The notes: generated by a model not told the origin, from the letters alone. Numbered from the stretch's first letter, positions 4,070-32,000 are shown. The stretch is DNA of 32,000 nucleotides from Streptomyces sp. WGS_02 (GCA_040989845.1 JAYMFZ010000004.1:2656824-2688823), one strand, 5' to 3'. Translations and numbers: made by a program.

Positions 4070-4752
4070 TTCCCGAAGGCTCCCTGCTCGCCGCGCACGA
4101 TCTGCGCAAGACCTACGGTTCGACGCCCGCCCTGGACGGCGCGTCGTTCTCCGTGCACCCCGGCGAGGTCGTCGCCGTCATGGGCCCGTCCGGCTCCGGC
4201 AAGTCGACCCTGCTGCACTGTCTGGCCGGGATCATCACACCCGACTCCGGCACCATCACCTACGCGGGCCGCGAGCTGTCCGCGATGTCCGACGCCGAGC
4301 GCAGCGCCCTGCGCCGCAGCGACTTCGGCTTCGTCTTCCAGTTCGGCCAGCTCGTCCCCGAGCTGACCTGCGTGGAGAACGTCGCCCTGCCGCTGCGGCT
4401 CAACGGCGTGAAGCGCAAGGCCGCCGAGCGCACCGCACGCGCGTGGATGGAGCGCCTGGAGGTCGACGACCTCGGCTCCCAGCGCCCCGGCGAGGTCTCC
4501 GGCGGGCAGGGCCAGCGGGTCGCCGTGGCCCGTGCGCTGGCGGCGTCGCCGAAGGTGATCTTCGCCGACGAGCCGACCGGCGCGCTGGACTCGCTCAACG
4601 GCGAGCGGGTGATGGAGCTGCTCACCGAGGCCGCCCGGTCCGCCAACGTGGCCGTGGTCCTGGTGACCCACGAAGCCCGGGTCGCCGCCTACTCCGACCG
4701 TGACGTCACCGTGCGCGACGGCCGGGCCCGGGATCTGGAGCACGCGGTATGA
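4066..4752 (+). CDS. ABC transporter ATP-binding protein (MacB/LolD/FtsE-like)
   Basis: GTG 4066 overlaps the PadR stop (GTGA). Walker A GPSGSGKST, signature VSGGQGQRVAVARAL, Walker B VIFADEPTGALD and H-loop VLVTHE are present. Only the last 228 codons of track ORF 3088..4752 are real. Confidence 0.93.
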   Translation: MIPEGSLLAAHDLRKTYGSTPALDGASFSVHPGEVVAVMGPSGSGKSTLLHCLAGIITPDSGTITYAGRELSAMSDAERSALRRSDFGFVFQFGQLVPELTCVENVALPLRLNGVKRKAAERTARAWMERLEVDDLGSQRPGEVSGGQGQRVAVARALAASPKVIFADEPTGALDSLNGERVMELLTEAARSANVAVVLVTHEARVAAYSDRDVTVRDGRARDLEHAV

Positions 4753-9434: not shown

Positions 9435-9472
9435 TGACACCGCACCACCCCTGACCCACCTGGGTACGAGAG

Positions 9473-9506
9473 GAGCCCCGGGGACGAGAGACCGTCCCCG
9501 GGGCTC
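9473..9506. terminator. Bidirectional terminator hairpin between ahpD and the AI-2E transporter
   Basis: GAGCCCCGGGGACG (9473-9486) / loop agagac / CGTCCCCGGGGCTC (9493-9506), a 14-bp perfect stem followed by TTCC. Confidence 0.7.
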
Positions 9507-9530
9507 TTCCGCGTGTTCCGTGCCGCTCCG

Positions 9531-10924
9531 CTACTCCGGCGACGGCGGGTTCTCCCGCGGGCGTTCGGCCGGCGCGTCCTGCGGGCCCGGACCGGGTGGT
9601 GCGGGCGTGGCCCCGGCGGGCACCGGGTTCATCGAGAGAGCCGTGGATCCGGTGCGCCCGCCGCTCCCGCCCGGGGGCCCCGGCGTCGCGTACGAACGCA
9701 GGTAGACCACAACCGTGTTGGTCACCGCGACCAGCGGTACAGCCACCACCGCGCCGCCGATGCCCGCGACGAGCCCGCCGGTCGCCACCGCGAGGACCAC
9801 CGCGAGCGGATGCACCCGGACGGCGCGGCCGAGGATGAACGGCTGCAGGATGTGGCCCTCGATCTGCTGCACGGCCAGGACCACCACCAGCGCCCACAGC
9901 GCCGTCCATACGCCTTCGGTGACCAGGGCCACGACCACGGCGAGCGCTCCGGAGACCACGGCTCCGACGAGCGGGATGAAGGCGAACAGGAAGATGAAGA
10001 CGGCCAGCGGCACCGCGAGCGGCACGTTCAGGACGTAGAGGCCGAGGCCGATGAAGATGGCGTCGATCAGGGCGACGAGCACCGTGCCCCGTACATAGGC
10101 GGTCAGGGTGCGCCAGGCGCGCGGTCCGGCCCCGGCGACGCCCGGACGGGCCGCGGCGGGCACCAGCTTGAGCGACCACTCCCAGATGCGGCGGCCGTCG
10201 TAGAGCAGGAACAGCGTGGAGAACATCGCCAGCAGCAGCCCGGTGAGGAACTCCACCATCACCGTGACGCCCTGGAGCCCGGCGGAGGTGATCTCCTCGG
10301 TGTTGGTGCCGATGGTGTCGCTGAGGTTCTTGGCGATGTCGTTGATCTGCGACTCGGTGACGTGGAACGGGCTGTCGAGCGCCCAGCGCTTCAGCTCGTC
10401 GATACCGTCCCGGACCCGGTCGGAGAGCGTGTCGAGGTTCTCCATCACCTGCCACACCACGAACCAGCCGACCAGGCCGATGATGACGAACCCGAGGACG
10501 GCGGTCACGGCGGTGGCGAGCCCGTGCGGCAGCCCGAACCGCTTGAGTCGGACCACCGTGGGCTGGAGCATCGCGGTGATGAGCAGAGCGGCCGAGAAGG
10601 CGAGCACCACCAGCTCCACGGCGGTGATCACCCGCATCAGCACCCAGAGCGTCCCGGCGAGGACGAGGAGGCGCCAGCCGGCCTCCGCGGCGACCCGCAT
10701 CCCCCACGGAATCGCCGCCACCGGATCCGGCTTGGCGGCGACCGAGGGGGCGTAGCTGGGGGCGCGGGCACCTGCCCCGCTTCGTCGTCGACGTCGGGGA
10801 CGGCCCCCTTCGCCGTGAACGGTTCATCGTCGGCGGCGGCTCTCGCCCGACGCTCGTCCAGGCGTGCGCCCAGCTCCGTCAGTTCGGACCCGAAGCGGCC
10901 CAGCCAGCCCGGCAGTTTTGACAT
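9531..10924 (-). pseudogene. AI-2E family (PerM/UPF0118) transporter, frame broken by an apparent 1-nt deletion in a G-run
   Basis: ATG 10924 (GGAAGGAAAG RBS) gives MSKLPGWLGRFGSELTELGARLDERRA...EAGQVPAPP in the frame of ORF 10637..11305. The body (…SYAPSVAAKPDPVAAIPWGMRVAAEAGWRLLVLAGTLWV… with 8 TM helices) is ORF 9531..10721. The switch is at GGGGG 10758-10762. Length is 1394 nt (2 mod 3). Confidence 0.85.
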
Positions 10925-20152: not shown

Positions 20153-20276
20153 GGGGCGACCCTAACGGGCCTCGGGACCTGGGGTCTTGGGTCCGGGGGC
20201 CCAGAGCGGCCGGCCGGGACCCAAGCGTCGCCGTTCCGGGTCCGGGCACGTCCGCCGGGGGCTACCGTCGGTGCCC

Positions 20277-20675
20277 ATGAGGACATGGCGCGATGGCGAC
20301 GGGACGCTAACGGTCGGTACGGACTCCGGGCCCGGGCCGGAGGGGCAGGCGGTTCCGCTGCGGATAGCCGCCTCGTACCGGGCCCGCGCCAAGGGGCTGC
20401 TCGGGCGGGACGGGATCGAGGGGGCGATGCTGCTCACCCCGTGCGGGAGCGTGCACACCTTCCGGATGCGGTTCCCCATCGATGTGGCGTACCTCGACCG
20501 GAAGTTCAGGGTCCTGGCGGTCACCACGATGCAGCCGGGCCGCCTCGGGCTGCCCCGGCTGCGGGCCCGGCACGTGGTGGAGGCGGAGGCCGGGGCGATG
20601 GCGCGGTGGGGGGTGCGGCCGGGCGTACGGCTGGAGCTGAAGGCGGCACCGGCCACCGCGCCGGAACCCAGCTAG
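20277..20675 (+). CDS. DUF192 (COG1430) domain protein
   Basis: Preferred start ATG 20277 (MRTWRDGDGTL...). ARAKGLLGRDGIEGAMLLTPCGSVHTFRMRFPIDVAYLDRKFRVL matches the DUF192 core. The gene is divergent from the prepilin peptidase. Confidence 0.75.
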   Translation: MRTWRDGDGTLTVGTDSGPGPEGQAVPLRIAASYRARAKGLLGRDGIEGAMLLTPCGSVHTFRMRFPIDVAYLDRKFRVLAVTTMQPGRLGLPRLRARHVVEAEAGAMARWGVRPGVRLELKAAPATAPEPS

Positions 20676-20681
20676 GAGGCT

Positions 20682-20796
20682 ACGGCGGGCCCGCGTCCGG
20701 GCAGGCGCGGCCTCCCGGCGGGCCCGCGGTCCGGGGGCGCGACCCCCCGGCGGGCCCGCGGTCCGGGGTGGCGCCGGCTCACGGCGGGCCCGCGCC
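20682..20796. repeat. 32-34-nt GC-rich tandem repeat, about 3.5 copies
   Basis: Units (A/C)CGGCGGGCCCGCG(G)TCCGGG... start at 20682, 20715, 20747 and 20781. Each contains the palindrome GCGGGCCCGC. The array fills the convergent gap and runs into the last codons of the mannosyltransferase gene. Confidence 0.8.
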
Positions 20797-21981
20797 CAGC
20801 AGGGTCCAGGCGCCGTAGGCCGCTGACGCGCAGGCGAGGGCGGCGAGCACGGCGGCCGTGCGGCCCGTGGTGCGCAGCCGCAGCAGGGCGACGGCGGGCG
20901 GGAGCAGCAGCGGGAAGGCGGGCATCATCAGCCGTGGCCGGGAGCCGAAGTATCCGGCGCCGATCAGCGAGATGACGACGATCGTGATCGCGTAGACGAG
21001 TACGGGGAGCGGTTGCCGCTGCCGTACGCAGAGGACGACCAGCCACCCCAGCAGCGCGAGCGCCGCGCACAGGCCGAGGGCGGCGGGCCACGGCAGCCCG
21101 GCGATGAAGGCGGCGAGCGCGCGGCCGCCGTCGATGTTGTTGCCCCACTGCGCCTGGACGTCGAAGTAGGCGACCGGGCTGCCCTCGCGTACGGCCACGA
21201 ACACCACGTACGCCAGCCAGCCCAGCGGTGCGAGCGCCACGCCCGCGATCATCCGCGCGTGGCGGCGGAGCACCGGGCCGGCGCGGCGCTCGTCGCGGTA
21301 CTCCCGTACGAGGGTGACGGCGGCGGTGATCGCCAGGGCCGCGATGAGGGCGGCCGCCGAGGGCCGGGTGAGCCCTGCCAGGACGCACAGCGCCCCCGCG
21401 ACGATCCAGCGGCCCTTGAGGACGGCGTACAGCGCCCAGGCGGCGAGCGCGGTGAACAGTGTCTCGGTGTACGCCATCGACTGGACGAACGCCGTCGGGT
21501 AGACGCCCCACAGTGCCGCCAGCACCACCCCCGTACGCCGTCCGCGCAGCTGGGAGCCGACGGCGAAGATGCCCCAGGCGGCGAGCAGCCCGGCCGTCCA
21601 GGCGACCAGCAGTCCGGCGCCCCCGAGGGTGAGCGGAGTCACGGCGGAGACGGCGCGTTCGAGGGCCGGGAGCAGGGGGAAGAACGCCAGATCGGAGTGG
21701 ACGGAGCCGTCGGGGAGGGTGACGGTGTAGCGGTAGCCGTGCTCGGCGATGCGCTGGTACCAGACGGAGTCCCAGCGTCCGCTGAGCGGCCCCAGGGGGT
21801 CCTTCCCGGCGGCGGAGGCGGCCACCCAGAAGACGAGGAGCCCCAGGGCCCGCACGGCGGCGTAGACCGCGAGCGCGGGCGCGGCGGCCCGGAGCGCGGC
21901 GGCGGCCCGGGACCCGCCGGGAGTGCGGGGGGCCGGGGCCGGTCCTGCGGGCGTCCGGGTGCGGAGCTGGTGATCGGACAT
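20779..21981 (-). CDS. Polytopic membrane mannosyltransferase (PIG-V / GT-C-like)
   Basis: 400-aa ORF with about 9-10 TM helices. The motif WDSVWYQRIAEHGY...DLAFFPLLPAL is typical of the PIG-V-like mannosyltransferase family. Confidence 0.75.
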   Translation of the reverse strand: MSDHQLRTRTPAGPAPAPRTPGGSRAAAALRAAAPALAVYAAVRALGLLVFWVAASAAGKDPLGPLSGRWDSVWYQRIAEHGYRYTVTLPDGSVHSDLAFFPLLPALERAVSAVTPLTLGGAGLLVAWTAGLLAAWGIFAVGSQLRGRRTGVVLAALWGVYPTAFVQSMAYTETLFTALAAWALYAVLKGRWIVAGALCVLAGLTRPSAAALIAALAITAAVTLVREYRDERRAGPVLRRHARMIAGVALAPLGWLAYVVFVAVREGSPVAYFDVQAQWGNNIDGGRALAAFIAGLPWPAALGLCAALALLGWLVVLCVRQRQPLPVLVYAITIVVISLIGAGYFGSRPRLMMPAFPLLLPPAVALLRLRTTGRTAAVLAALACASAAYGAWTLLGAGPP

Positions 21982-22108
21982 ACGGCCGATTATGACGTCG
22001 GCGACGGGTACGCCGTGCCACGGGCAGCGCAGGGCCGGGCGTCCCGGCAGCGGTCCGATCGGTCCAGGGCCTGCCCCGGACCGGCCGGTGGCCGACGGCG
22101 GTGCGGGT

Positions 22109-22137
22109 GGCCCCGGCCCCCCGTACGGGCCGGGGCC
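22109..22137 (-). terminator. Hairpin just downstream of the 22147 gene
   Basis: GGCCCCGGCCC / cccgtac / GGGCCGGGGCC, an 11-bp perfect stem 10 nt after the stop on the minus strand. Confidence 0.5.
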
Positions 22138-22146
22138 AACCGGCTC

Positions 22147-22743
22147 TCAGACGCCGCCCAGCACCTCGTTCCCGAACACCTTCCACGGCGACATCTCCAC
22201 CGCGTCCATCACCGCGAGCTGCGGGTGCCGGGCCGCCGTCTCGTCCCGTACGGCGACGGTGTCCGGCCAGGCGTCCAGGTGCGCGGCGCCCTCGATGACG
22301 ACGGCGTCCCAGTCGGTGGCGGCCGTCGCGCCGGCCCGGTCGACGACGAAGCCGATGCACAGCACCGAGGCCCGCCCGACGGTCCGCCGGATGGCGCCCA
22401 CCGCGTGCTCCCGCTCCGGCTCGGGCAGTTCCCCCACGGAGAACTCGACGGCGACGACGCCGGCCCGGGCCCGCCGGATGCGCACCAGGAGGTCGAGGCC
22501 GCCGTCGGTCCACAACCGGAAGCCGACCTCGTGCAGCCGCTGGAGGCCGGCGAGGGACAGCAACTGCTCGCGGGTGACAGGCGAACGGGCCCCGAGGGAG
22601 GCGGAGTCGAGGCTGACGAGAACCGTGCGGCCGGTCACCGGGTGCTCCGGACGGAGCCCCTCGGCCGCCAGGTCGCCCAGCAGGGTGCGGGCGTCCAGCC
22701 GGGTCCAGCCGAGGTGGTACGAGAAGAAGAATCCGGCACCCAT
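22147..22743 (-). CDS. Hypothetical cytoplasmic protein (198 aa)
   Basis: Complete ORF with high GC3 and no TM helix or signal peptide. MGAGFFFSYHLGWTRLDARTLLGDLAAEGLRPEH... I recognise no family. Confidence 0.6.
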   Translation of the reverse strand: MGAGFFFSYHLGWTRLDARTLLGDLAAEGLRPEHPVTGRTVLVSLDSASLGARSPVTREQLLSLAGLQRLHEVGFRLWTDGGLDLLVRIRRARAGVVAVEFSVGELPEPEREHAVGAIRRTVGRASVLCIGFVVDRAGATAATDWDAVVIEGAAHLDAWPDTVAVRDETAARHPQLAVMDAVEMSPWKVFGNEVLGGV

Positions 22744-23033: not shown

Positions 23034-25073
23034 GTGAGCGGTGACGGGGGCGCAGACCGGGGGCGGGCCCGGGGAGACCGGAGCGCGGGACACATACCGC
23101 TGGGACGCCACGGCATCGCCGGTTCCGGTGTCCCGCACCCGCCCCAGCAGGGCAGCCGTTTCTTCGCGTTGACCCGGAGCTGGGTGATCGGCGGCCTGGT
23201 CTACCTCGCCCTCGGGTTCGTCATGAGCCGGGTCCTGGTCGATCTGCTGGCCACCGAGGAGCGGCTGGAGGCGTTCGGCTGGCGGCTGGCCCTGCTCCAC
23301 CTGCCCGCCCTCGTCGTGACGCTGCTGACGGTGCTGGCGGCGACCCGCGTCCTTCCCGAGGAGCACCGCGAGTCCTCCCGCACGGTGTATCTGCTCGCGG
23401 CCCTGGTCGTACCGCTGGCCGGGCTGCTGTACGGCTTTGCCGTCGCGGGGGACGTCGTCGGCATCGAGGGCCTGCTCATGCCCGCCGCGTCCCTGGCGGC
23501 GGGCGCGGCGTCGGGGGTGGCCGTCGACCGGCTGCTGGAGGAGCGCGCCACGCGCGCCCCGGAGCCGCCCCGGTACGCGTACAACTGGCGGGACAGCGGT
23601 GCGACGGCGATGGAGTACCTGGGTCTCGTCGTCCTCGTCACGATGCTGATCGGCGCGATGGCGATGGCAGGGGTCGGCGGCAAGATCGGGGAGCGGCTGC
23701 GGTGTGCGATCAGCTCGCTGGCCGGTGGCGGCGGCTCCTGTGCGTCCGGCGGCCAGGACCCCGAGGCCAAGCCGAAGACGGACGCGGACTACGAACCGAA
23801 GATGTGCCAGGTCTCCAGCATCTCGGACACGGCGGGCGGGAAGGTCAAGATCGGCTGGTTCGAGTGGGGCGAGGAGTACGGCTTCCAGCAGAAGGTCTCC
23901 CAGGCGAGTACCGATGTGAACGGCGACGGCACGGTCGACGGCAAGGACAAGATCGTCTCGATGACGTTCACCGACGCCGCGTCCGCCGGGGCCACCGCCA
24001 GTACACCGGGCGTCAAGCTCGGCAGCCTGGGCAAGGCGGATGTCGACATCGGCGGCGGCATCAAGATCACCAACGGTGACACCTGGATCTTCGCGAGCGA
24101 GGAGGAGGCTCAGCGGATGCGGGACGACATCGAGGAGATGAAGATGTGGGAGACCTCCACCAAGCACAGCGGCGGCTACGGCGGCGGCTGGTACTCCGCG
24201 ATGAAGTGGGCGGAGAAGAAGGAGGACATCGAGAAGAAGATCGGCGACAAGAAGATCTCCTACTCGACCGTCGGCCTCAACGCCTACGCGGACGGCGGCC
24301 TCTCCGTCAAGGGCGGCGACGAGGACGAACTGGGCGCGAAACTCGGGGGCAAGGCGACGTTCTCGCCCGAGGTGACGATCACCAAGGACGACGTGAACGG
24401 CAACGAGTCGTCCACGTACACCGCCAAGCTCGAACTGGAGGGCAAGGCCGGCGGGAACGTGGGTCCGGTCAAGGGCACGGTGGGCGGCAAGCAGAGCCGT
24501 ACCGGCGCCATCACCGTCACCCGCGACCAGAAGACCGGGAAGATCGTCCGGATCGACATGACACAGACCGTGGAGAGCGGTTCGACGTCCGGCAAGGTCG
24601 AGGTCGGCGGCGACAACGGCGAGAGCGGCCAGGACAAGCGGGGCGGCAAGGGCAGCGCGTCGGACTCCTCGGGCGGGACGGGCATCGACGTCGTGACGAA
24701 CTCGATCGTCTTCGGCAAGGACACGGACGCGGCGACCGAGGCCAAGCGGGGCATCGCGGAACAGTGGCTGGACGGCTCCGGCAACAACACGGCCCCCTTC
24801 GAGTACCTCTTCGGCGACCACGGCATGGAGAACCGCCCGGACGGCAACGACCCGTTCCAGCAGCTGATGTTCGAGGACGGGCTGTCCAGCACCCTGCGGT
24901 ACACGGGCGAGAGCGACGCCCAGGAGTTCGGCTTCGAGATCTCCCTCGGGATGAGCCTCGGGTTCTCCCTCTCCACGGAGGAGAAGAAGGAGACACTGAC
25001 GGACGCGCAGTTCCTCGGGGCGCCGCGGGGCGACGCGCGCACGTATCTTCCGTACAGCTACTGCGCGAACTGA
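23034..25073 (+). CDS. Membrane protein with an internal Flp-pilin-like module and a large Lys/Gly/Asp-rich C-terminal domain (orphan)
   Basis: GTG 23034 follows GGAGAGGG. Four predicted TM helices lie in residues ~55-175. Then comes PRYAYNWRDSG|ATAMEYLGLVVLVTMLIGAMAMAGVGGKIGERL (G at 23598-23600), clearly homologous to the Flp pilin at 30144..30374. About 440 aa of beta-rich, K/G/D/E/T-rich sequence follows, ending YSYCAN. GC3 supports one continuous frame. An alternative internal start is ATG 23478 (GAGGG RBS). Confidence 0.7.
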   Translation: MSGDGGADRGRARGDRSAGHIPLGRHGIAGSGVPHPPQQGSRFFALTRSWVIGGLVYLALGFVMSRVLVDLLATEERLEAFGWRLALLHLPALVVTLLTVLAATRVLPEEHRESSRTVYLLAALVVPLAGLLYGFAVAGDVVGIEGLLMPAASLAAGAASGVAVDRLLEERATRAPEPPRYAYNWRDSGATAMEYLGLVVLVTMLIGAMAMAGVGGKIGERLRCAISSLAGGGGSCASGGQDPEAKPKTDADYEPKMCQVSSISDTAGGKVKIGWFEWGEEYGFQQKVSQASTDVNGDGTVDGKDKIVSMTFTDAASAGATASTPGVKLGSLGKADVDIGGGIKITNGDTWIFASEEEAQRMRDDIEEMKMWETSTKHSGGYGGGWYSAMKWAEKKEDIEKKIGDKKISYSTVGLNAYADGGLSVKGGDEDELGAKLGGKATFSPEVTITKDDVNGNESSTYTAKLELEGKAGGNVGPVKGTVGGKQSRTGAITVTRDQKTGKIVRIDMTQTVESGSTSGKVEVGGDNGESGQDKRGGKGSASDSSGGTGIDVVTNSIVFGKDTDAATEAKRGIAEQWLDGSGNNTAPFEYLFGDHGMENRPDGNDPFQQLMFEDGLSSTLRYTGESDAQEFGFEISLGMSLGFSLSTEEKKETLTDAQFLGAPRGDARTYLPYSYCAN

Positions 25074-25080
25074 ACGGGCG

Positions 25081-25767
25081 GTGACGGAGTCGATGAGCAC
25101 GGCGATGAGCACAGCGATGAGTCCGGCGATGAGCACAGCGATGAACTCGGCCATGAGGACCAGGACGCGGAACATGCGGACAGCCCCGGGGCGGATGACG
25201 GCTGCGGCGGCGGCCGTCGCGGCGGCGGCCGTGCTGCTGACCGGATGCGGCGGCGACGCGGACAAGGCCTCCGTGCCCGAGGGCTGGGGCACGTTGGAGA
25301 CCGACAGCCTGAGCGTCGGCTACCCGAGGAGTGAGGGGTACGCGGAGCAGCCCGCGGGCGAGCGGGCCAAGGCCAACGCGGCCGTCGCGCTCAAGGAGGA
25401 GAACGGCATCCGGACCGGCATGGTCTCGGTCCAGCGGGACTTCGCCACGGGGGTGCACGACGCGGCCGGGGCGGCGGCAGCAGCGGGCGCGGGCATCGGC
25501 CTCAACTCCACCCGCAAGGCGACGGACGACGTACGCCTCGCGGGCCCGGACGACGCCGGCGAAGGCCGCGAAGCGCGCCGGATCGACTACGACTTCACGG
25601 CGGACGGCCGGGAGGACACCCCGAACAGGGGGACGCCGATGACCGGGGTCCTGGTCGCGGGGGTGGACTCGAAGGGTGTTCCGTTCGTCGTGCGCCTGAA
25701 CGCGGTGAAGGACGCGGTGGAGGCGGAGGACCTGGACGCGTTCGTGGGGTCGATCACGGTGAAGTAG
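25081..25767 (+). CDS. Lipoprotein of unknown function
   Basis: Lipobox AAAAVLLTG|CGGD. The start is ambiguous: GTG 25081, the ATG ladder at 25093-25153, or ATG 25174, which gives a canonical 25-aa signal (MRTAPGRMTAAAAAVAAAAVLLTGC). The gene starts 8 nt after the stop of the Flp-module protein, so it is probably co-transcribed. Confidence 0.7.
   Translation: MTESMSTAMSTAMSPAMSTAMNSAMRTRTRNMRTAPGRMTAAAAAVAAAAVLLTGCGGDADKASVPEGWGTLETDSLSVGYPRSEGYAEQPAGERAKANAAVALKEENGIRTGMVSVQRDFATGVHDAAGAAAAAGAGIGLNSTRKATDDVRLAGPDDAGEGREARRIDYDFTADGREDTPNRGTPMTGVLVAGVDSKGVPFVVRLNAVKDAVEAEDLDAFVGSITVK
25091..25162 (+). repeat. 12-nt tandem repeat (CGATGAGCACRG, 5-6 copies), each unit containing an in-frame ATG
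   Basis: Units at 25091, 25103, 25115, 25127, 25139 and 25151 encode MSTA MSTA MSPA MSTA MNSA M at the 5' end of the lipoprotein ORF. Confidence 0.85.
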
Positions 25768-25789: not shown

Positions 25790-26401
25790 ATGTTCGACGG
25801 CGACCGGCCCTATCTCCCGAGCGACGCCCTGGACCGGGAGGCGGCCGAGGTCGTCGCGCGGGCGGCGGGAGCGGAGGATCCGGGGGCGGTGGTGGACCCG
25901 GACTCCGTGGAGTCGCCGGCCCGGGCGGCCCGCCGCCTCCCGCCGTGGCCCGACACCGTGGCGGGGCTCGCCCGCCTCGCCGGGCGCTTCCCGCTGATCG
26001 GCCTGTCCAACGCGAGCCGGACGGCGCTGCCGGAGCTGAACGCCCACGCCGGGCTGCGCCGGCACCAGGCGCTGTCCGCGCAGGACGCCCGTACGTACAA
26101 GCCGGATCCGGCGGTCCACCGGCTCGCCGTCACCTTCGCCGGGCTGCCGCCGGAGCGCCTGCTGATGGTCGCCGCCCACGCCTGGGACCTGCGCGGCGCG
26201 CAGGCGCTGGGGCTGCGCACGGCGCATGCGGCCCGCCCGGTCGGCGACCCGCCCACGCCCTCGGACCGCTTCGACCTCCATGCCGAGGACCTGACGGATC
26301 TGGCGGGTCAGCAGGGGGCATCCTGGGGACGGGGGAACACGGCGCTCCTCAGCTCAGCGGGCAACCGAGCGGGAGGACGCGTTCGGTCAGCCGGCCGGTG
26401 A
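25790..26401 (+). CDS. HAD-superfamily (haloacid dehalogenase type II-like) hydrolase, N-terminally short/degenerate, possible remnant
   Basis: LPPWPDTVAGLARLAGRFPLIGLSNAS...TYKPDPAVH...LLMVAAHAWDLRGAQALGLRTA matches HAD motifs II-IV. The protein starts MFDGDR, with no normal DxDxT context and a short cap region. The last ~90 nt have poor GC3 and overlap the convergent gene by 53 nt. Confidence 0.5.
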   Translation: MFDGDRPYLPSDALDREAAEVVARAAGAEDPGAVVDPDSVESPARAARRLPPWPDTVAGLARLAGRFPLIGLSNASRTALPELNAHAGLRRHQALSAQDARTYKPDPAVHRLAVTFAGLPPERLLMVAAHAWDLRGAQALGLRTAHAARPVGDPPTPSDRFDLHAEDLTDLAGQQGASWGRGNTALLSSAGNRAGGRVRSAGR

Positions 26402-27943
26402 GGAGGGTGTCGGTGACGTCGGCCTCCGCCAGCCAGTCCGCGGCGGTCAGCCGGTCCACGAGGTCCGGCAGGTCGGCGGGGTCGACGGAGCACCCGGAGG
26501 ACAGGGCGTCCAGGCCGACGCCCTCCCCTCCGGGCCCCAGCCGCCCTTCGCCGTCGGAGCCGGTGGCCAGGGCCAGGGCGAGAAGCCGTACGTCGGCGCC
26601 GGTCTTGCCCTTGCGGAGCTTCTTCTCCCCGACGACCCGCTGGGCCCATCCGCTGAGCTTGGGGCGCAGCTTCCTGCCGAACGTGAACGGCCCCGGGTCG
26701 TCCTCGTCGGGCGTGAGGGACGGCACGCTGATCCGGGTGGGGCTCTCCGGGCGGGAGGCGATCAGTTCCTCGACGGTCCCGGAGATACCGAGCCAGCCGG
26801 ACTCGACCAGCTGCCCCACCAGGTGCTCGGGATCCTGCAGGGGCAGCCCCTTGATGTCCTGCCCGACCAGATTGCCGACCCCGGACTGCGCGGTGCGCAG
26901 CGTCACCATCAGCACCAGCAGGCGCGCCTCGGCTCCCGGCAGGGGGCGTTCTCGGCCACGTGGGCCAGGACGGCTCGGGCGTGGTTCCACTGCGCGGGGG
27001 CGGTCAGCAGCCGTACGACGGCGTGCCCTTCGCCGTCCGGGGCCTGGCCGATGCGGTGCAGATGCTGGAGGCGGGCGGTGGCGGCGGCCTGTTCGGCCCG
27101 CTGGGCGTCGAGGCGCAGCCCGGTGTCGGCGGTGACCTCGGCCCAGGCGCTGAAGGCCTCCGCTTTACGCGCGTGGAGGTCGGCGAGCATCGCGAGGTCG
27201 GGTTCGGTGCGGGCCTGGTAGGCGCGGAAGAGTTCGCCGAGCTCGGTGAGTTCGTCCCGGAGCGCGACGGGCCGCAGGTCGTGGGGGACGAGGCGCTGAG
27301 CGATCCTCCCGCGCGGGTGCCGCTTCCGCGTCGGCCTCGCGGACCGGGGGGCGGAGCGGGGCGACGACGTCTGTTGGGGGACGGCGGTGGCCGTGGTGGT
27401 GGCGGCGCTGTGCGAGAAGTGCGGGCTGATCGCCGAGAAGGTCGGCGTGTGGACCGCGGGGGCCGCGGGAGCTGCGGTCCCGGCCCGGGGCCCGTCGTTC
27501 CTGGCCGGTGCCTCGGTGGCGGCCGGAGCGGTGGCGACGACCTTCGCGGTGGGGTGGGCGGCGGCGCAGCGCGAGCAGCACTCCATGACCTGCCACCAGC
27601 GCCCTTCCCGGTCCGTGATGACGGCCAGGACGACCGCTCCCCCGCACCGCCAGGGCACGGGGCGCTCACGCGGCCCGGCGGGCCGGATGTGCGTATGGCA
27701 CTCCTCGGCCCGACAGGCGCAGTGCACGGAGGGGCGGGGGGCGGGGCCGGCGCGCAGGTGGGCCTTGAGGTGCGCGATCGCCGCCGTGCGGCCGGCGGCG
27801 GCGGAGGGCAGCACCTGCGCCGCGCAGGCCGGGCGGCTGCACGAGACGCGTACGTCCGCACGACCGCGGCCGACCGGGTCCAGCCGCACCGTCCACCGGC
27901 GTCCCGTCACGCGTTCGTTCGTCGCGTGGGCCTCCACACCCAT
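26349..27943 (-). pseudogene. Cys/His-rich orphan protein (~531 aa), frame broken by an apparent 1-nt deletion in a G/C-run
   Basis: ATG 27943 follows GAGGAAGG. The N-terminus has CSRPAC...HLKAH...CACRAEECHTH...CC..C, followed by an Ala/Pro/Thr linker and a helical C-terminal half. ORF 26909..27988 (…AVLAHVAENAP) joins ORF 26349..26990 (LPGAEARLLVLMVTLRTAQSG…) when one nt is restored at GGGGG 26942-26946. Length is 1595 nt (2 mod 3). Confidence 0.6.
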
Positions 27944-27970
27944 CACACCTTCCTCGACGACTGTTCGTAT

Positions 27971-28018
27971 GCGCACCGCGGCAGCCACCCGCCTGTGCAG
28001 GCGGCTGCCGCGGTGCGC
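27971..28018 (-). other. Long near-perfect hairpin in the leader of the Cys-rich gene
   Basis: GCGCACCGCGGCAGCC (27971-27986) pairs with GGCTGCCGCGGTGCGC (28003-28018). An inner GCCTG/CAGGC extension is also present. The hairpin lies 28 nt upstream of ATG 27943. Confidence 0.6.
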
Positions 28019-28153
28019 GGCGTGTCACAGTCTGCTACGCCGGGCAGTCCGGATTCCGGCCCACAACACCAACGAGGGTCCGCCGTTCGGGTGACGGCCT
28101 CGGCGGGCATGTGGCCGGATTCCTGCCCTGGCGGTGTGGCCCCGGACGGCACA

Positions 28154-28194
28154 CCCGCGCCCGCCGTCGTGGGAAGAACGACGGCGGGCGCGGG
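28154..28194 (-). terminator. Terminator hairpin after the OmpA-like gene
   Basis: CCCGCGCCCGCCGTCGT / gggaaga / ACGACGGCGGGCGCGGG, a 17-bp perfect stem 34 nt after the stop at 28228 on the minus strand. Confidence 0.65.
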
Positions 28195-28227
28195 TTGCGA
28201 GGTACGGGCAGCGGTGTCGGGAAGGGG

Positions 28228-28875
28228 TCAGGACCCCTCTCCGCGCGGGAAGGAGACCTCCACGCGGCGGTTCTTCTTCCGGCCCTCTTCGTTGCTGTTG
28301 CTGGCGATCGGGTACTGCTCGCCGTAGCCCCGGATCTCGTACGTGACGGTGGGGCCGAGCTGCTTCGACAGGACCCCGTGCACGGCGTCGGCCCGCTGCT
28401 TGGAGAGGACGTCGCCGTGGGCCGAGGAACCGAGGTTGTCGGTGAAGCCGAAGACGCGGACCTTGGTCGCGTTCTGCTTCTTGATCTCCTCGGCGATGGC
28501 GGCGATACGGGCGTTGGCCGCCGAGCTGAGCTTGGCACTGTCCTTGCCGAAGAGGACTTCGGCCTGGAGCGCGAACTTGATGTCGGCGTTGCTGTCCTCG
28601 CGGCGCTCTTCGCCGCCTAGGTCTTCGACCACCTGGACGATGTCGAGGACGCGGCCGGGGGCGAGGGTGCCGCCTTCGGGCATCTTGAGGTCGGGGTCGT
28701 TCGGGTCGACGGGCACGGGCGGCTCCGACGTCGCCTCCGTACCGGGCGGGACGCTCGGGCCGTCATCGGCGTACGAGGGTGACGCGCCGAGCAGCGTCGT
28801 GCCGGCGATCAGCACGGCGACCGCGACGGCTTGTCCCAGGTTGCGCGCCGCCCGGGGGCGCTGGGTGGTCTTCAT
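28228..28875 (-). CDS. Secreted OmpA-family (OmpA_C-like peptidoglycan-binding) protein
   Basis: ATG 28875. Signal peptide MKTTQRPRAARNLGQAVAVAVLIAGTTLLGASPSYA|DD. C-terminal domain: FALQAEVLFGKDSAKL...VRVFGFTDNLGSSAHGDVLSKQRADAV...GYGEQYPIASN...NRRVEVSF. Confidence 0.88.
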   Translation of the reverse strand: MKTTQRPRAARNLGQAVAVAVLIAGTTLLGASPSYADDGPSVPPGTEATSEPPVPVDPNDPDLKMPEGGTLAPGRVLDIVQVVEDLGGEERREDSNADIKFALQAEVLFGKDSAKLSSAANARIAAIAEEIKKQNATKVRVFGFTDNLGSSAHGDVLSKQRADAVHGVLSKQLGPTVTYEIRGYGEQYPIASNSNEEGRKKNRRVEVSFPRGEGS

Positions 28876-28883
28876 GGCCGCGT

Positions 28884-29501
28884 TCACCCAGAAATCTTCA
28901 GCGAGGTGGTGGCGAAGGTCGGAAGGCTGAAGTCGACCTCGGTCGTGTCCTGCGGCGGGGCGGGGAACTGCATGAAGATCGGTGCCGACTTGCCCGGTGC
29001 GAGGGACGTGATCGCCGTGGTGCACAGGCAGCGGGAATCTGTGTCCCGCAGCACGTAGTAACGCTTCTTCCCCGCCTTGTCGACCAGCGTCGCACCGGCG
29101 ACCGAGTTGGGGTTCTTGTTCACGATGTTCACCTCCGAGCCGGCCCAGCCCGAGGTGGTTCGCGCCTGGTCGCCCTCGTTGGTGATCGCGCCCTGCACGG
29201 TGAGGAATCCGCCGGAATCCCGCTTGACCTCGTTGACGACCAGAACCAGGCCGCCCTGCCCGCGTGTCTCCGCGAGTTTCACATCCGGGTCCACGTTCTC
29301 GCCCGCAGCCGTGTCCTCCTGCTGCGACTCGCCCTTGTCCTCCGCGGAGGGGCTGGCCGGGGCGGACGGCGCGCTGGAGCCCTCGTTGCCGGGCTTCTCG
29401 CCTCCGTCGTCGCCACAGCCGGCGAGAGCAAAGGCCAGAGCAGCGGTCATGCTGACAGCCGCCGTGGCCCTTCTGGTCGTCGTGGTCCGCCGCATGCTCA
29501 T
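28884..29501 (-). CDS. Lipoprotein of unknown function (beta-sandwich-like)
   Basis: Lipobox AFALAG|CGDD, GAGGAA RBS, 205 aa. The stop is 8 nt before the OmpA-like start. Confidence 0.75.
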   Translation of the reverse strand: MSMRRTTTTRRATAAVSMTAALAFALAGCGDDGGEKPGNEGSSAPSAPASPSAEDKGESQQEDTAAGENVDPDVKLAETRGQGGLVLVVNEVKRDSGGFLTVQGAITNEGDQARTTSGWAGSEVNIVNKNPNSVAGATLVDKAGKKRYYVLRDTDSRCLCTTAITSLAPGKSAPIFMQFPAPPQDTTEVDFSLPTFATTSLKISG

Positions 29502-29535
29502 GGTCCGATTCCTCTACTCGTCGTTCGCTTCGCTG

Positions 29536-30144
29536 TCACTGGTCGACCAACCGCACGTCGAAGAGAGTCCTGCTCACCGTCTCCCAGGGTGGAGGGCTGG
29601 CCGGTGCGATCTCGAGAACCTTGCCGTTCCGGCACGTGAAGATGAAAAGGTCCATGATTCCGTCGCTGTTGGCGTCCACAGCCTTCGGGCGGGGGCACCG
29701 GAACTCGATGAGCGCGGTGGCCTCGGCTTTGGCCTTCTTGTTCTCCGAGCCGGGCAGTACCGAGGAGTCGACCGCCTTCAGGCCCTGGACCTCGACCGTG
29801 ATCCGGTCGCGCAGATATCCAGGAGTCGGATAGCACGATTCCATTGTGGCGCCGTTGGCCGCCGCGAGACGGTCCGCCTCGTAACAGGGCGCAATGAAAG
29901 GCGTGTTGAGGAACACGTCCAGCATATTGGTGGGGAGCGAGGCGTAGAAGCCCGTCCCGAAGTCGTCGCGTGCCTGCTGGGCGGCGGCCAGAGCGGCGGC
30001 GTCCGCCGCACCCTGGGAACCGTTGCGCAGAGCCGAGGCCTTACCGACAGCGAAGAAGGCCAACGCAAGGAAGAGCAGGCCCGCCACCATCATCACGTAG
30101 ATGGGGAAGGCCTGCCCTGCGTCGCCGTGTTGGCGCTTATGCAT
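29536..30144 (-). CDS. TadE/TadG-like (Tad_N, pseudopilin-type) pilus assembly protein
   Basis: ATG 30144 overlaps the pilin stop (TGATG). The N-terminus MHKRQHGDAGQAFPIYVMMVAGLLFLALAFFAVGKA matches the TadG-like N-terminal hydrophobic segment. The upstream two thirds of track ORF 29536..30588 is an out-of-frame read-through of the pilin gene. Confidence 0.7.
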   Translation of the reverse strand: MHKRQHGDAGQAFPIYVMMVAGLLFLALAFFAVGKASALRNGSQGAADAAALAAAQQARDDFGTGFYASLPTNMLDVFLNTPFIAPCYEADRLAAANGATMESCYPTPGYLRDRITVEVQGLKAVDSSVLPGSENKKAKAEATALIEFRCPRPKAVDANSDGIMDLFIFTCRNGKVLEIAPASPPPWETVSRTLFDVRLVDQ

Positions 30145-30374
30145 CAGCCCGAGACGATGGAGGTCACCAGTCCGTCGATGCGGCTGGAGATGTTCCCGCC
30201 GATCCCGGAGGCCGCGATCGCCCCGATGATCGCCACGACCACCAGAATGATCCCCAGGTACTCGAACGCCGTCTGCCCCCGGTCCTTCGCCGCGTAGCGC
30301 TTCTGGATCGCGCTGACGGCGGTGTTGGCCCAGCCGTTGACGCGGACGGCGGTCTTCACGGTGATGTCCGACAT
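30144..30374 (-). CDS. flp: Flp family type IVb pilin (prepilin, 76 aa)
   Basis: ATG 30374 with GGAGGGG 6 nt upstream. Leader MSDITVKTAVRVNGWANTAVSAIQKRYAAKDRG, then the processing motif G|QTAFEYLGIILVVVAIIGAIAASG (G/XXXXEY plus a hydrophobic helix). Confidence 0.85.
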   Translation of the reverse strand: MSDITVKTAVRVNGWANTAVSAIQKRYAAKDRGQTAFEYLGIILVVVAIIGAIAASGIGGNISSRIDGLVTSIVSG

Positions 30375-30513
30375 GGTGTTCCCCTCCGGGTTCGGCCGAC
30401 CGGTTGCCGGCCGACTCGCACGTTTCTGCGGTGCCGCCCTCGTTACCGGCTTCCTCCTGGCCGGTGCCGCTGGCGACAGGAGAAACATAGGGGGGAACCC
30501 GCATTCCCACAGA

Positions 30514-30539
30514 GGGCCCGTGGGCCCATTCCCGGGCCC
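30514..30539. promoter_or_regulatory. Three GGGCCC palindromes upstream of the pilin gene (candidate regulator site)
   Basis: GGGCCC at 30514-30519, 30522-30527 and 30534-30539, inside the 210-nt gap between the response regulator stop and the pilin start. Confidence 0.25.
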
Positions 30540-30584
30540 AAAGAGCCTTCTGGGTCCACCCGTCGCGGAATCGCTCGGTCATGG

Positions 30585-31553
30585 TCACGGCTGCCGCCCG
30601 GGGTTCCGGGGCGCGGTGCCGAGCCAGTGGGCGATGGCCTCGCTGCGGGTGGCGCTGTGGAGCTTCGTGAAGATGCGGTTGATGTGGTTCTTGACCGTCT
30701 TCTCACTGATGAAGCAGGTGGCGGCGATCTGCTGATTACTCATTCCGGACGCAATCAGGTCCATGACCTCCACCTCCCTCGAACTCAGCCCGAACTGCTG
30801 CCTGTTGGGGGTGGATACCGACCCCCCGGATACAGAAGACTGTCCCACAACTGGTTGCAGTTGCGAAAGGCTTTCCGAAGGTTCGGTGGTGTGCGGGGGC
30901 AGTGGGGCCGGCGCCGTGGCCAGTGCCGAGCCCAGGCCCTCGGGGAGCGGGCCCCGCTGGGGCGGCGTGCCGTGGCGCATATGGGCCAGGAGGGCGTCCG
31001 CGGCGGTGACGGTGAAGTTGGCGCGGCCGTCCTTCGTGTCGCGTACCGCCTGGACCAGCTGGTTCGCCGTGAACTCGCCGTGCACCAGATAGCCGCCCGC
31101 GCCCAGCCGCAGCGCCTCGTGGACGATCTCGCTCTCGCGGCTGTATGTCAGCATCAGCACAGGTGCGATGCCGACCAGGTGCGGCAGGGCCGAGATGCCG
31201 TCCACGCCCGGCATGCGGACGTCCAACAGGACGACGTCGGGGCGGTGTTCGAGCGTCCTCTCGTACGCCTCGCGGCCGTCCGCCGCCTCCGCGACCACCT
31301 GGATGTCCGCCCGGCCGGACAGCAGTACGCCCAGGCCGGCCCGGACCACCGGGTTGTCGTCCGCGACCACGACGCGGAGACGTTCGGCGGCCGGGGCGGC
31401 AGGCCCCGGGAAGAAGGGGGACGGGGACGGGATCGCAGGGGGTCGAGGGTCGGGGGCCGGGGTGAGCGGGATGGGCGGCGACGGGTGCTGGGGGGCGGGG
31501 CGGTGAGCCGCCGCCCCGTGGCTGTTCGGCGCAGGGGAGACATCGTCCGGCAT
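30585..31553 (-). CDS. LuxR/NarL-family response regulator with a Pro-rich N-terminal extension
   Basis: ATG 31553 follows GAGAGGAGG. About 56 aa of Pro-rich sequence, then REC (RVVVADDNPVVRAGL...VVLLDVRMPGVDG...VLMLTYS...GAGGYLVHG), a ~70-aa linker, and the LuxR HTH (LSSREVEVMDLIASGMSNQQIAATCFISEKTVKNHINRIFTKL). Confidence 0.88.
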   Translation of the reverse strand: MPDDVSPAPNSHGAAAHRPAPQHPSPPIPLTPAPDPRPPAIPSPSPFFPGPAAPAAERLRVVVADDNPVVRAGLGVLLSGRADIQVVAEAADGREAYERTLEHRPDVVLLDVRMPGVDGISALPHLVGIAPVLMLTYSRESEIVHEALRLGAGGYLVHGEFTANQLVQAVRDTKDGRANFTVTAADALLAHMRHGTPPQRGPLPEGLGSALATAPAPLPPHTTEPSESLSQLQPVVGQSSVSGGSVSTPNRQQFGLSSREVEVMDLIASGMSNQQIAATCFISEKTVKNHINRIFTKLHSATRSEAIAHWLGTAPRNPGRQP

Positions 31554-31580
31554 GCTGCGACCTCCTCTCAGGGTCGAGGG

Positions 31581-32000
31581 TTACGGGTGAGTGGCGTGTC
31601 CGTATTCGGCTGCTGGTGCGGAAGCACGTACGGGTACGGAAGCGGGCCGGGGAGCCGACGACGGGCTTTCCACGGACCCGCCCGCCAGCGCCGCCAGCGG
31701 GAGCTCCACCCGTACCTCCGTCCCCTTCTCCGCCTTCCCCCGCCCGATCCTGATCCGGGCCCCGATCGACGCCGCCCGCTCCACCATGCCGACCAGGCCG
31801 AAGTGGCCCGCCCGGCGCAGTGCTTCCAGGGTCGTTCCGGCGGGCAGGCCGCGGCCGTCGTCGTACACGGTGACGCGGAGCATGTCGCCCTTCACGCCCG
31901 CGAGGACGATCAGGTACGTCGGGGACGCGTGGCGGTGTGCGTTCTCCATGGCCTCCGAGGCGACGGTGAGGAGCTGGCGGGCCACTGCCTGCGGGACCGG
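31581..32000 (-). CDS. Sensor histidine kinase (HisKA_3/NarX-LiaS type), only the C-terminal HATPase domain is in the window
   Basis: N-box EAMENAHRHA, G1 YDDGRGLP and G2 GHFGLVGMVERAASIGARI. The frame is open to the window end. TAA stop at 31581, 27 nt before the regulator start. Confidence 0.85.
   Translation of the reverse strand, partial: PVPQAVARQLLTVASEAMENAHRHASPTYLIVLAGVKGDMLRVTVYDDGRGLPAGTTLEALRRAGHFGLVGMVERAASIGARIRIGRGKAEKGTEVRVELPLAALAGGSVESPSSAPRPASVPVRASAPAAEYGHATHP

Follow-up and report, generated by a model that had tools for sequence, protein, structure and literature searches.

A single open reading frame (ORF; positions 23034..25073, 679 amino acids) in a 32,000-nucleotide stretch of the Streptomyces sp. 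WGS_02 genome (GCA_040989845.1 JAYMFZ010000004.1:2656824-2688823; hereafter the window) very probably results from the in-frame joining of two partner genes and belongs to a family of large Flp-type proteins that is linked to Tad pilus genes and A24 prepilin peptidases. Judged by its sequence, part 1 (residues ~49-164) corresponds to an inner-membrane protein of four helices, and part 2 (165-679) is a large member of the Flp-type family, consisting of a class III signal, (D/E)xG↓A(T/S)xxEY (the arrow marks the predicted cut), with a hydrophobic helix after it, a second short helix, a cysteine-containing linker and a ~420-residue beta-rich domain closed by conserved cysteines. The fuller explanation, in which the internal signal is also cleaved after G189, we consider probable on balance. 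What is new here is an unannotated group of modular Flp-type proteins, and the unusual part is an internal signal made by fusion to a membrane partner.

By translation the ORF starts at GTG 23034 and ends with the stop codon at 25071..25073, as given in a preliminary description of this DNA. A Shine-Dalgarno-like sequence, GGAGAGGG, ends 7 nt upstream of the GTG, and M1 is the point at which the N-termini of orthologues align. GC content at the third codon position (GC3) is 0.90-1.00 in this frame and unbroken from ~23100 to 25000, through the transmembrane (TM) part, the motif and the C-terminal domain (C-domain), in agreement with the strong third-position GC already reported upstream of the motif; the three therefore lie in one coding frame. 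The 120 best of 215 matches (cluster representatives) are without exception 628-699 amino acids long and from Streptomyces, many of them from complete genomes. An exact look-up of the 679-residue sequence gave no record. The long ORF is a real gene and neither an assembly nor an annotation artefact. The window as a whole is high in GC (0.61-0.81 in 500-nt segments, mostly about 0.65-0.80), and the C-domain had been described as locally less GC-biased than its neighbours. This part of the description stood, with 0.65-0.67 measured for 24001-25000, but the low value is due to amino-acid composition and is no sign of foreign DNA: GC at the first codon position is 0.57 in the C-domain and 0.80 in the TM part, whereas GC3 is 0.957 in both, and a foreign origin of the C-domain was rejected for this reason.

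The predicted A24 cut falls between nucleotides 23600 and 23601, after G189, in the motif WRDSG↓ATAMEY, with Gly at -1, Glu at +5 and Tyr at +6 as in Flp/Fap pilins. Hydrophobicity on the Kyte-Doolittle scale peaks at 2.41 directly after the motif (residues 188-219), and AlphaFold2 places helices at residues 188-211 and 215-229. Residues 172-229 align without gaps to residues 16-73 of the small Flp prepilin encoded at 30144..30374 in the same window (BLASTP, 22/58 identities, 38%; 62% positives; 47 bits; E 5e-12 for the single comparison), bearing out an earlier claim that the two correspond almost position by position. The G↓xxxxEY motif, the helix-turn-helix and the homology to the local Flp pilins support the identification of this segment as an Flp-type module, and its first and second helices together appear to make up a complete Flp pilin module.

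Conservation is concentrated at the putative cut site. In 19 fused orthologues (70-96% identity), W185, R186, D187, G189, T191, A192, E194, Y195 and G197 are invariant and flanking residues vary. Fused forms only 41-50% identical keep G(-1) and an acidic residue at +5 (E; D in relative P0121), and the cleavage-site Gly is nearly invariant across 66 diverse or distant relatives. A (D/E)xG↓ context before the cut site is common to fused and short forms, and the loop before the Gly retains a leader-like length in the fused forms (about 22-35 residues).

A search of 1.84 billion protein representatives identified 198 relatives at E<=1e-3. The family is defined here by alignment A3, and the 679-residue protein matches the family profile hidden Markov model (HMM) with E 2e-134 over profile positions 5-476 (hmmsearch). 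Most relatives are 450-530 amino acids long and 21-35% identical; their residue ~5-20 aligns at query residue ~185, and the alignment continues to the C-terminus. Among their N-termini are MFWPRHRTGDRG↓ATAIEYVG, LLERG↓ASAVEYVG and GRERG↓AGALEYAA, and a motif scan found [GAS]xxxx[DE] followed by a hydrophobic helix in 82 of 96 long representatives. The leader of the short forms ends in (D/E)RG↓AxxxEY. Their motif lies mostly at residues 6-35, so that they obey the rule of an N-terminal motif, although some have hydrophilic leaders of 54-86 residues (P0124, P0228, P0297); a motif at residues 168-189 occurs only in forms with extra helices. The four-cysteine signature of the family is present in the 679-residue protein, with C224 and C236 after the helix, C258 where the domain begins and C677 near the C-terminal end. 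We take the short leaders of the relatives, together with the near-invariant Gly and the four cysteines, to mean that family members are normally large proteins that bear a conventional class III signal of the Flp type.

The family extends past Streptomyces, for example to Naumannella (Propionibacteriales), and its members are named in their sources as "hypothetical protein" or, in a few cases, "Flp family type IVb pilin". The commonest weak Pfam matches among 66 members were DUF4244 (5) and Flp_Fap (3, tied with Dockerin_1; best E 9e-4), all below threshold. A profile from distant family members matches the small prepilins of the window (E 7e-10) and of locus L005 (E 8e-10). When ORFs of at least 60 residues in the window and 11 further loci (numbered with the prefix L) were scanned with the family profile, the only four matched beyond family members were these two Flp prepilins, a GDSL-lipase protein in L007 and the TadE of L004, each of them pilin-like. 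In a neighbor-joining tree of the C-domains (no support values), the fused forms are not grouped together.

The membrane module that precedes the signal has Kyte-Doolittle peaks at residues 49-74, 80-108, 114-144 and 146-164, ahead of the fifth at 188-219. Lysine plus arginine residues (K+R) number 7/1/2/0/5 in the N-tail and successive loops, a positive-inside pattern that points to an N-in topology and, therefore, to a cytoplasmic position of loop 165-189 and G189. The preliminary description had likewise seen four hydrophobic helices before the motif and had reasoned that an even number would place the junction on the cytoplasmic face, which agrees with the K+R pattern. Its term "giant leader" did not survive: the four helices are an independent module, a separate gene in other Streptomyces, and most relatives have leaders of 6-35 residues. 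The protein sequence of the module is conserved across orthologues (for example R48, S49 and W50, W83 and R84, and P91), and stand-alone homologues of 130-170 amino acids (P0203, P0229, P0233, P0248, P0251, P0258 and P0260, all Streptomyces) match query residues ~30-170 only. The window holds one copy of the module, the fused one.

In four loci (L001, L004, L005 and L010) the 4-TM module has its own gene, no more than about 5 kb from a family member. The most informative is L005, from Streptomyces thermolineatus, which is syntenic with the window (both contain genes for AhpC, CMD, an AI-2E transporter, SLT, PhoH, a prenyltransferase, an aldo-keto reductase, the A24 peptidase and DUF192, and an operon for a histidine kinase, response regulator, Flp, Tad, lipoprotein and OmpA) and yet has the split form. 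Its large protein is a short form of 529 amino acids with a 54-residue hydrophilic leader, and its 4-TM gene (169 amino acids) lies 5 kb away, beside OmpA, DUF192 and A24 genes. In L004 a short form, a lipoprotein, a DUF3592 protein and the 4-TM gene follow one another in one direction; L010 contains a cassette of the same type and then a fused form of 665 amino acids with its own lipoprotein; and in L001 the 4-TM gene is 2.4 kb from the family member and its lipoprotein. The fused form is thus found in the window and in L010. The expectation that orthologues would keep the TM region fused held for the close Streptomyces orthologues (628-699 amino acids) and failed for L001, L004, L005 and L010, in which the two are separate genes. 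The fused state thus joins two genes that lie near each other in other loci. It is plausible that a tandem duplication of an L004-like cassette brought the 4-TM gene immediately ahead of a second pilin-like gene, and that the stop codon between them later disappeared.

A metagenomic operon, L007, has a different, non-homologous multi-TM extension before the same motif in two of its paralogues, from which it follows that helices have been placed before this signal more than once. The same operon encodes two 309-residue proteins with a multi-TM segment and a C-terminal domain, one of which (4080-5009) weakly matches the lipoprotein profile (E 4e-4), and a 500-residue GDSL lipase with the Flp-type leader RERG↓QGTVEY; the signal is therefore also used on clearly non-filament cargo. 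Multi-TM proteins of L006, L007 and L008 were considered as homologues of the 4-TM module and rejected, with no HMM match at E<10; they are analogous in position alone. DUF3592-like small membrane proteins (weak Pfam matches) lie between the lipoprotein and the stand-alone 4-TM gene at L004:12137-12568 and at L010:8532-8960 and 9449-9886, and no homologue of them was found in the window.

Genomic context links the family to Tad pili. Eight loci have long flanks (the window, L001, L004, L005, L007, L008, L009 and L010), and in seven of them a Tad locus and/or an A24 gene is next to the family member, L001 being without either. An A24 peptidase gene is encoded within 4 kb in the window, L005, L007 (as the first gene of the operon), L008 and L009, and a complete Tad locus (RcpC-like, TadZ, TadE, TadA, TadB and TadC, then a histidine kinase and response regulator) is divergently adjacent in L004, L008 and L010. 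This context agrees with the earlier proposal of a pilin helix that carries a large cargo. The window gene previously named as the peptidase, about 3 kb from the fused ORF, indeed encodes an A24 enzyme: it has the motifs GFGDVK and VDRRVHRLPD and is 68% identical to the A24 peptidase of L005. The enzyme is longer than its relatives (315 versus 200-259 residues), and a Pro/Ala/Glu-rich, low-complexity insert of ~90 residues (roughly 55-140) separates its first hydrophobic segment from the catalytic core. A lipoprotein gene had also been noted directly downstream of the fused ORF. Its homologues are adjacent to family members in L001, L004, L005, L006, L008, L009 and L010 (two copies) as well as in the window (HMM E 1e-41 to 2e-75).

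From these observations we propose that the precursor inserts with its N-terminus inside and that helices 1-4 return the 25-residue loop 165-189 to the cytoplasmic face, where it would mimic a prepilin leader ending in WRDSG. Helix 5 would serve as the pilin alpha1N helix and export the C-domain. Cleavage after G189 by the A24 peptidase would release a free 4-TM partner and a 490-residue mature modular Flp pilin beginning at A190, with Glu at +5; the products would match the pair of polypeptides that separate genes encode in related species, and this split arrangement in orthologues suggests a reason for the cut. In pilins, Glu +5 pairs with a free N-terminus, and a charged Glu is costly inside a plain TM anchor. 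We favor cleavage because the motif is invariant in fused orthologues, because G(-1) and the acidic +5 persist at 41-50% identity, because the loop is leader-like in length and because Glu +5 is sensible beside a free N-terminus. To cast the A24 peptidase as a splitting protease of a polytopic membrane polyprotein, with the cut at G189 freeing an Flp-type pilin of 490 residues that is displayed on or secreted by a Tad system, is a tentative step that falls a little short of probable.

The mature protein might act in a Tad/Flp filament as a minor or tip subunit, or it might be a surface protein anchored by its pilin module, with the beta-rich domain outside the cell and the lipoprotein assisting. 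Either role is likelier than that of a major subunit, for which 490 residues would be too bulky. Minor-pilin tip complexes that have variable exposed domains and require prepilin peptidase are known from Tad pili (PMC12075869), and modular pilins with grafted domains exist in type IVa pili (PMC10191384, PMC8179133). By this analogy the mature protein could specifically be a pilus tip or adhesin, an assignment that we regard as rather doubtful.

Several observations weigh against this reading. Flp pilins are about 50-80 amino acids long, with a leader of about 35 residues or less and a single TM helix; the 679-residue protein departs from these norms, with its motif at residue 189 behind four helices and a predicted mature form of 490 residues. 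By sequence it breaks two prepilin rules of PilFind, by which a true pilin has only a single TM helix and carries its motif no farther than about 35 residues from the N-terminus (PMC3244431). The fourth hydrophobic helix is weak (Kyte-Doolittle 1.57), and should it fail to cross the membrane, the resulting topology would not suit a cut at G189. The genes tadA, tadB and tadC, for the polymerizing machine, were not found in the window; in L009, also from Streptomyces, no 4-TM gene was found within 10 kb of the family member; and multi-TM proteins beside family members outside Streptomyces have no detectable homology to the 4-TM module. The fold of the C-domain is uninformative, so that only analogy speaks for an adhesin or tip role. 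No A24 peptidase is known to us to cut behind a polytopic segment, and a search of a limited literature collection found no description of a prepilin signal in such a position, nor of the family defined here. Finally, the Pfam models Flp_Fap (PF04964), TadE (PF07811) and Tad (PF13400) do not match the 679-residue protein, and PF04964 does not match the isolated Flp-like segment even at E<=10. An Flp HMM match expected for this segment is therefore lacking, but the Pfam model misses the reference prepilin 30144..30374 as well. For this reason, and because the split form would give cleavage at G189 a purpose, we keep the core idea despite the missing match and the separate TM and Flp genes of orthologues.

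If no processing occurs, the Flp-like helix would be an ordinary fifth TM anchor, by which the beta-rich domain stays permanently joined to the 4-TM module on the external side of the membrane. The motif would then be an evolutionary remnant or would serve helix packing. A motif at residue 189 behind four helices, outside all prepilin recognition rules (PMC3244431), favors this explanation, as does the failure to find Tad assembly genes in the window; the fusion is also stable over many species, so selection could be acting on the covalent link itself. Against it, G(-1), E(+5) and Y(+6) do not change in any of the 19 fused orthologues, in which other positions of the helix vary, and even fused forms of 41-50% identity retain G(-1) and E(+5) (with D at +5 in P0121), despite the cost of a charged Glu in a plain TM anchor. 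The retention of a leader-like loop length (about 22-35 residues) and of the (D/E)xG context, the A24 peptidase gene 3 kb away and the existence of the two parts as separate polypeptides in related species likewise speak for cleavage, and we hold an uncleaved protein to be unlikely.

The C-domain itself offers few clues. The AlphaFold2 model, calculated from an alignment of 66 diverse members after a run on 19 close orthologues had proved unusable (predicted local distance difference test score, pLDDT, 46), has a pLDDT of 76.9 and a predicted template modeling score (pTM) of 0.75. Its C-domain comprises roughly ten strands, each 16-20 residues long, with two helical hairpins set between them; the cysteine linker is of low confidence, and the C-terminus puts C677 near the first strand, which begins at C258. 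C236 and C258 are invariant across the family, C224 nearly so, and C677 is also conserved. Four conserved cysteines after the helix are consistent with an extracytoplasmic domain, and they suggest two extracytoplasmic disulfides with a pairing that we infer. As in the preliminary description, which recognized no family, neither Pfam nor NCBIfam gave anything above threshold for the whole protein or its three parts, and a PDB sequence-profile search with the 679-residue protein gave no match. Foldseek against PDB and BFVD returned no convincing fold (template modeling scores <=0.23 by query length and <=0.33 by target length). All PDB matches were transmembrane beta-barrels, at a root-mean-square deviation of 14-30 A, and BFVD was no better. 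Membrane beta-barrels and phage maturation proteins, which made up the Foldseek matches overall, were dropped as fold matches on these low scores, and weak PLDc_N and Dockerin Pfam matches below the cut-off were set aside, the latter being a mere DxNxDGxxD-like loop.

In one divergent relative (P0234, L011:264-1994), the beta-rich domain (profile positions 84-472) follows an unrelated N-terminus of ~210 residues with no Flp motif. Neighboring genes for proteins of 87 and 387 amino acids have sub-threshold matches to EspC and WXG100, and an HMM search of L011 found no homologue of the partner lipoprotein next to it. A different export route may also serve the beta-rich domain, as in P0234; involvement of type VII secretion was dropped because it rests solely on the sub-threshold matches.

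These features bear on a second alternative, in which the C-domain is an exported membrane-active effector or toxin, the lipoprotein and 4-TM protein are immunity or handling factors, and the Flp signal is the export route, with cleavage still taking place. A small lipoprotein always adjoins the family member and a small multi-TM protein often does, the two being fused together in the 309-residue proteins of L007. The model combines long amphipathic beta-hairpins with helical hairpins, and each weak PDB match is a transmembrane beta-barrel, although at the template modeling scores given above none is a real fold match. P0234 carries the C-domain behind a different N-terminus and near faint WXG100/EspC-like genes, but these hints of type VII secretion are all below threshold. 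The L007 GDSL lipase bears the same Flp-type leader, so the signal does serve non-pilin cargo. As no toxin or immunity family is matched and the tight linkage is to Tad pilus genes and not to toxin cassettes, we consider an effector improbable.

Still less probable is an internal start, with the pilin-like protein made mainly from ATG 23478 (M149) or GTG 23517 (V162) and the long fusion product minor or absent: both codons are present in frame, V162 would give a 28-residue leader typical of short forms, and NCBI gives alternative lengths of 624/625 versus 655 amino acids for some fused orthologues, but the two modules are connected without a stop or a shift of frame, GC3 is uniform, V162 is T or L in close orthologues and M149 is missing in the fused P0121, M149 lies inside helix 4 so that its product would have half of a TM helix at its N-terminus, inspection by eye revealed no clear Shine-Dalgarno sequence ahead of these two codons, and the in-frame fusion in more than 70 cluster representatives would be left unexplained.

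Table 1. Coordinates of the fused gene and its parts, of neighboring genes in the window, and of related genes in other loci (L numbers).
Feature	Coordinates	Strand	Remarks
Whole ORF, 679 aa (amino acids)	23034..25073	+	Predicted fusion of 4-TM membrane module and Flp-type modular pilin-like protein
Variable Gly/Arg-rich cytoplasmic N-tail, residues 1-48	23034..23177	+	7 K+R; poorly conserved, length varies among orthologues
Four-helix membrane module, residues 49-164	23178..23525	+	Hydropathy, conservation, stand-alone homologues, HMM E 6e-54
Cytoplasmic loop DRLLEERATRAPEPPRYAYNWRDSG, residues 165-189	23526..23600	+	5 K+R; predicted prepilin-leader equivalent ending in G189
Flp-type pilin module, residues 190-229	23601..23720	+	ATAMEY, hydrophobic alpha1N helix, second short helix; BLASTP, AlphaFold2
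Cys-containing Gly/Pro/Asp-rich linker, residues 224-258	23703..23807	+	Holds C224, C236, C258
Beta-rich cargo domain, residues 258-679 (~420 aa)	23805..25070	+	Ends LPYSYC(677)AN; AlphaFold2, family HMM
Partner lipoprotein	25081..25767	+	LLTGC lipobox; starts 7 nt after stop of 679-aa ORF; real start may be internal Met
A24 (TadV/PilD-type) prepilin peptidase, 315 aa	19205..20152	-	PF01478 E 1.8e-13; candidate processing enzyme
DUF192-like gene	20187..20675	+	tblastn 71% identity to L005 DUF192; NF002996 E 2e-12
GT-C/PIG-V-like polytopic membrane protein	20779..22146	-	PF04188 E 1.3e-4, sub-cut-off
198-aa protein	22147..22743	-	No family match
OmpA-family protein	28228..28875	-	End of Flp operon
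Second lipoprotein	28884..29501	-	Flp operon
TadE/G-like protein	29536..30144	-	PF13400 E 6e-7; directly downstream of prepilin, start overlaps pilin stop
Small Flp-type prepilin, 76 aa	30144..30374	-	KDRG↓QTAFEY; comparison protein; family-profile E 7e-10
LuxR-type response regulator	30585..31553	-	Upstream of prepilin
Histidine kinase, cut at window end	up to 32000	-	Upstream in Flp operon
Stand-alone 4-TM gene	L005:4611-5120; L004:12505-12957; L010:8963-9409; L001:8001-8456		
L007 metagenomic operon	L007:451-12391		A24 peptidase first; three family paralogues (692, 686, 504 aa), two with multi-TM N-extension

Other genes in the window are listed in Table 1. The comparison prepilin lies in an operon-like row (28228..32000, minus strand) with the order histidine kinase, response regulator, Flp, Tad, lipoprotein and OmpA, which is the same in L005 and is without tadA, tadB and tadC; this setting is typical of an actinobacterial Flp gene. 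A Pfam scan of this prepilin gave no match to Flp_Fap, TadE or Tad. The DUF192-like gene adjoins the A24 peptidase gene in the window, L003 (578-997) and L005 (5525-5920), all from Streptomyces. Between it and the fused ORF are the genes for the GT-C/PIG-V-like protein and the 198-residue protein, which are absent from this position in L005; a link of the two to glycosylation of the exported protein is conceivable. Downstream of the partner lipoprotein, an ORF at 25790..26401 (+) resembles HAD-type II dehalogenases, but matches TIGR01428 at positions 51-195 only (117 versus the 125-bit cut-off); it perhaps has no N-terminal catalytic motif and may be a truncated gene or have a mis-set start. 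In 26349..28200 the frame-plot signal switches, and this region contains only ORFs without a family: 26349..26990 (-), 26909..27988 (-) and possibly 27387..28094 (+).

If the proposed cleavage takes place, the substrate rules of prepilin peptidases reach beyond an N-terminal leader and a single TM helix, and A24 peptidases would be able to process polytopic precursors. A conserved internal signal behind four helices in many Streptomyces would also mean that prepilin search rules miss real substrates. The family would then form a new class of large Flp-type cargo proteins, widespread in Actinobacteria, with a lipoprotein of their own and a domain unlike any solved fold, and its members are candidate exposed tips or cargoes through which the Tad pili of monoderm Actinobacteria gain a function. 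The split and fused forms of sister species provide a natural control for cleavage, and they predict joint action of the 4-TM protein, the lipoprotein and the pilin-like protein.

Among known systems, the 679-residue protein appears to work like an Flp-type prepilin fused to cargo, but by HMM it is no member of PF04964, PF07811 or PF13400. It resembles the Flp/Fap pilins of Tad (type IVc) pili (PF04964; DUF4244-type) in its G↓xxxxEY motif, hydrophobic helix, short second helix and A24/Tad linkage, and is unlike them in the location of the motif at residue 189 after four helices, the predicted mature length of 490 residues and the lack of a Pfam match at threshold. Like TadE, TadF and TadG (PF07811, PF13400), it is bigger than Flp, has an Flp-like processing site at the N-terminus of the predicted mature protein and is encoded with Tad genes. 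According to the account cited in PMC10191384 (Tomich et al. 2006), the TadE and TadF pseudopilins and TadG are minor pilins processed by TadV, and minor pilins of this type have been proposed to form the pilus tip (PMC12075869). In contrast to these proteins, it has no HMM match, a much larger and unrelated C-domain, a dedicated lipoprotein and an N-terminal 4-TM fusion.

A pilin module with a grafted exposed domain is also found in PilB and PilC of Streptococcus sanguinis and in the "Tip" minor pilins of the Myxococcus Kil system; these modular pilins depend on prepilin peptidase and functionalize the pilus tip (PMC8179133, PMC10191384, PMC12075869). The 679-residue protein is built in the same manner, with a helix-turn-helix homologous to a whole Flp pilin, then a linker and a ~420-residue beta domain. 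PilB/PilC and the Kil Tip proteins have N-terminal signals and known modules (vWA, lectin), whereas the protein described here is Flp-type, comes from monoderm Actinobacteria, has a domain without detectable relatives and bears an internal signal. Archaea place class III signal peptides on large non-filament cargo, such as the sugar-binding proteins of Sulfolobus (reviewed in PMC2910488). These substrates differ in belonging to another domain of life and another peptidase subfamily and in having N-terminal signals with no polytopic segment before them, but they resemble the 679-residue protein in carrying a prepilin-type signal on a large cargo, and the GDSL lipase of L007 points the same way.

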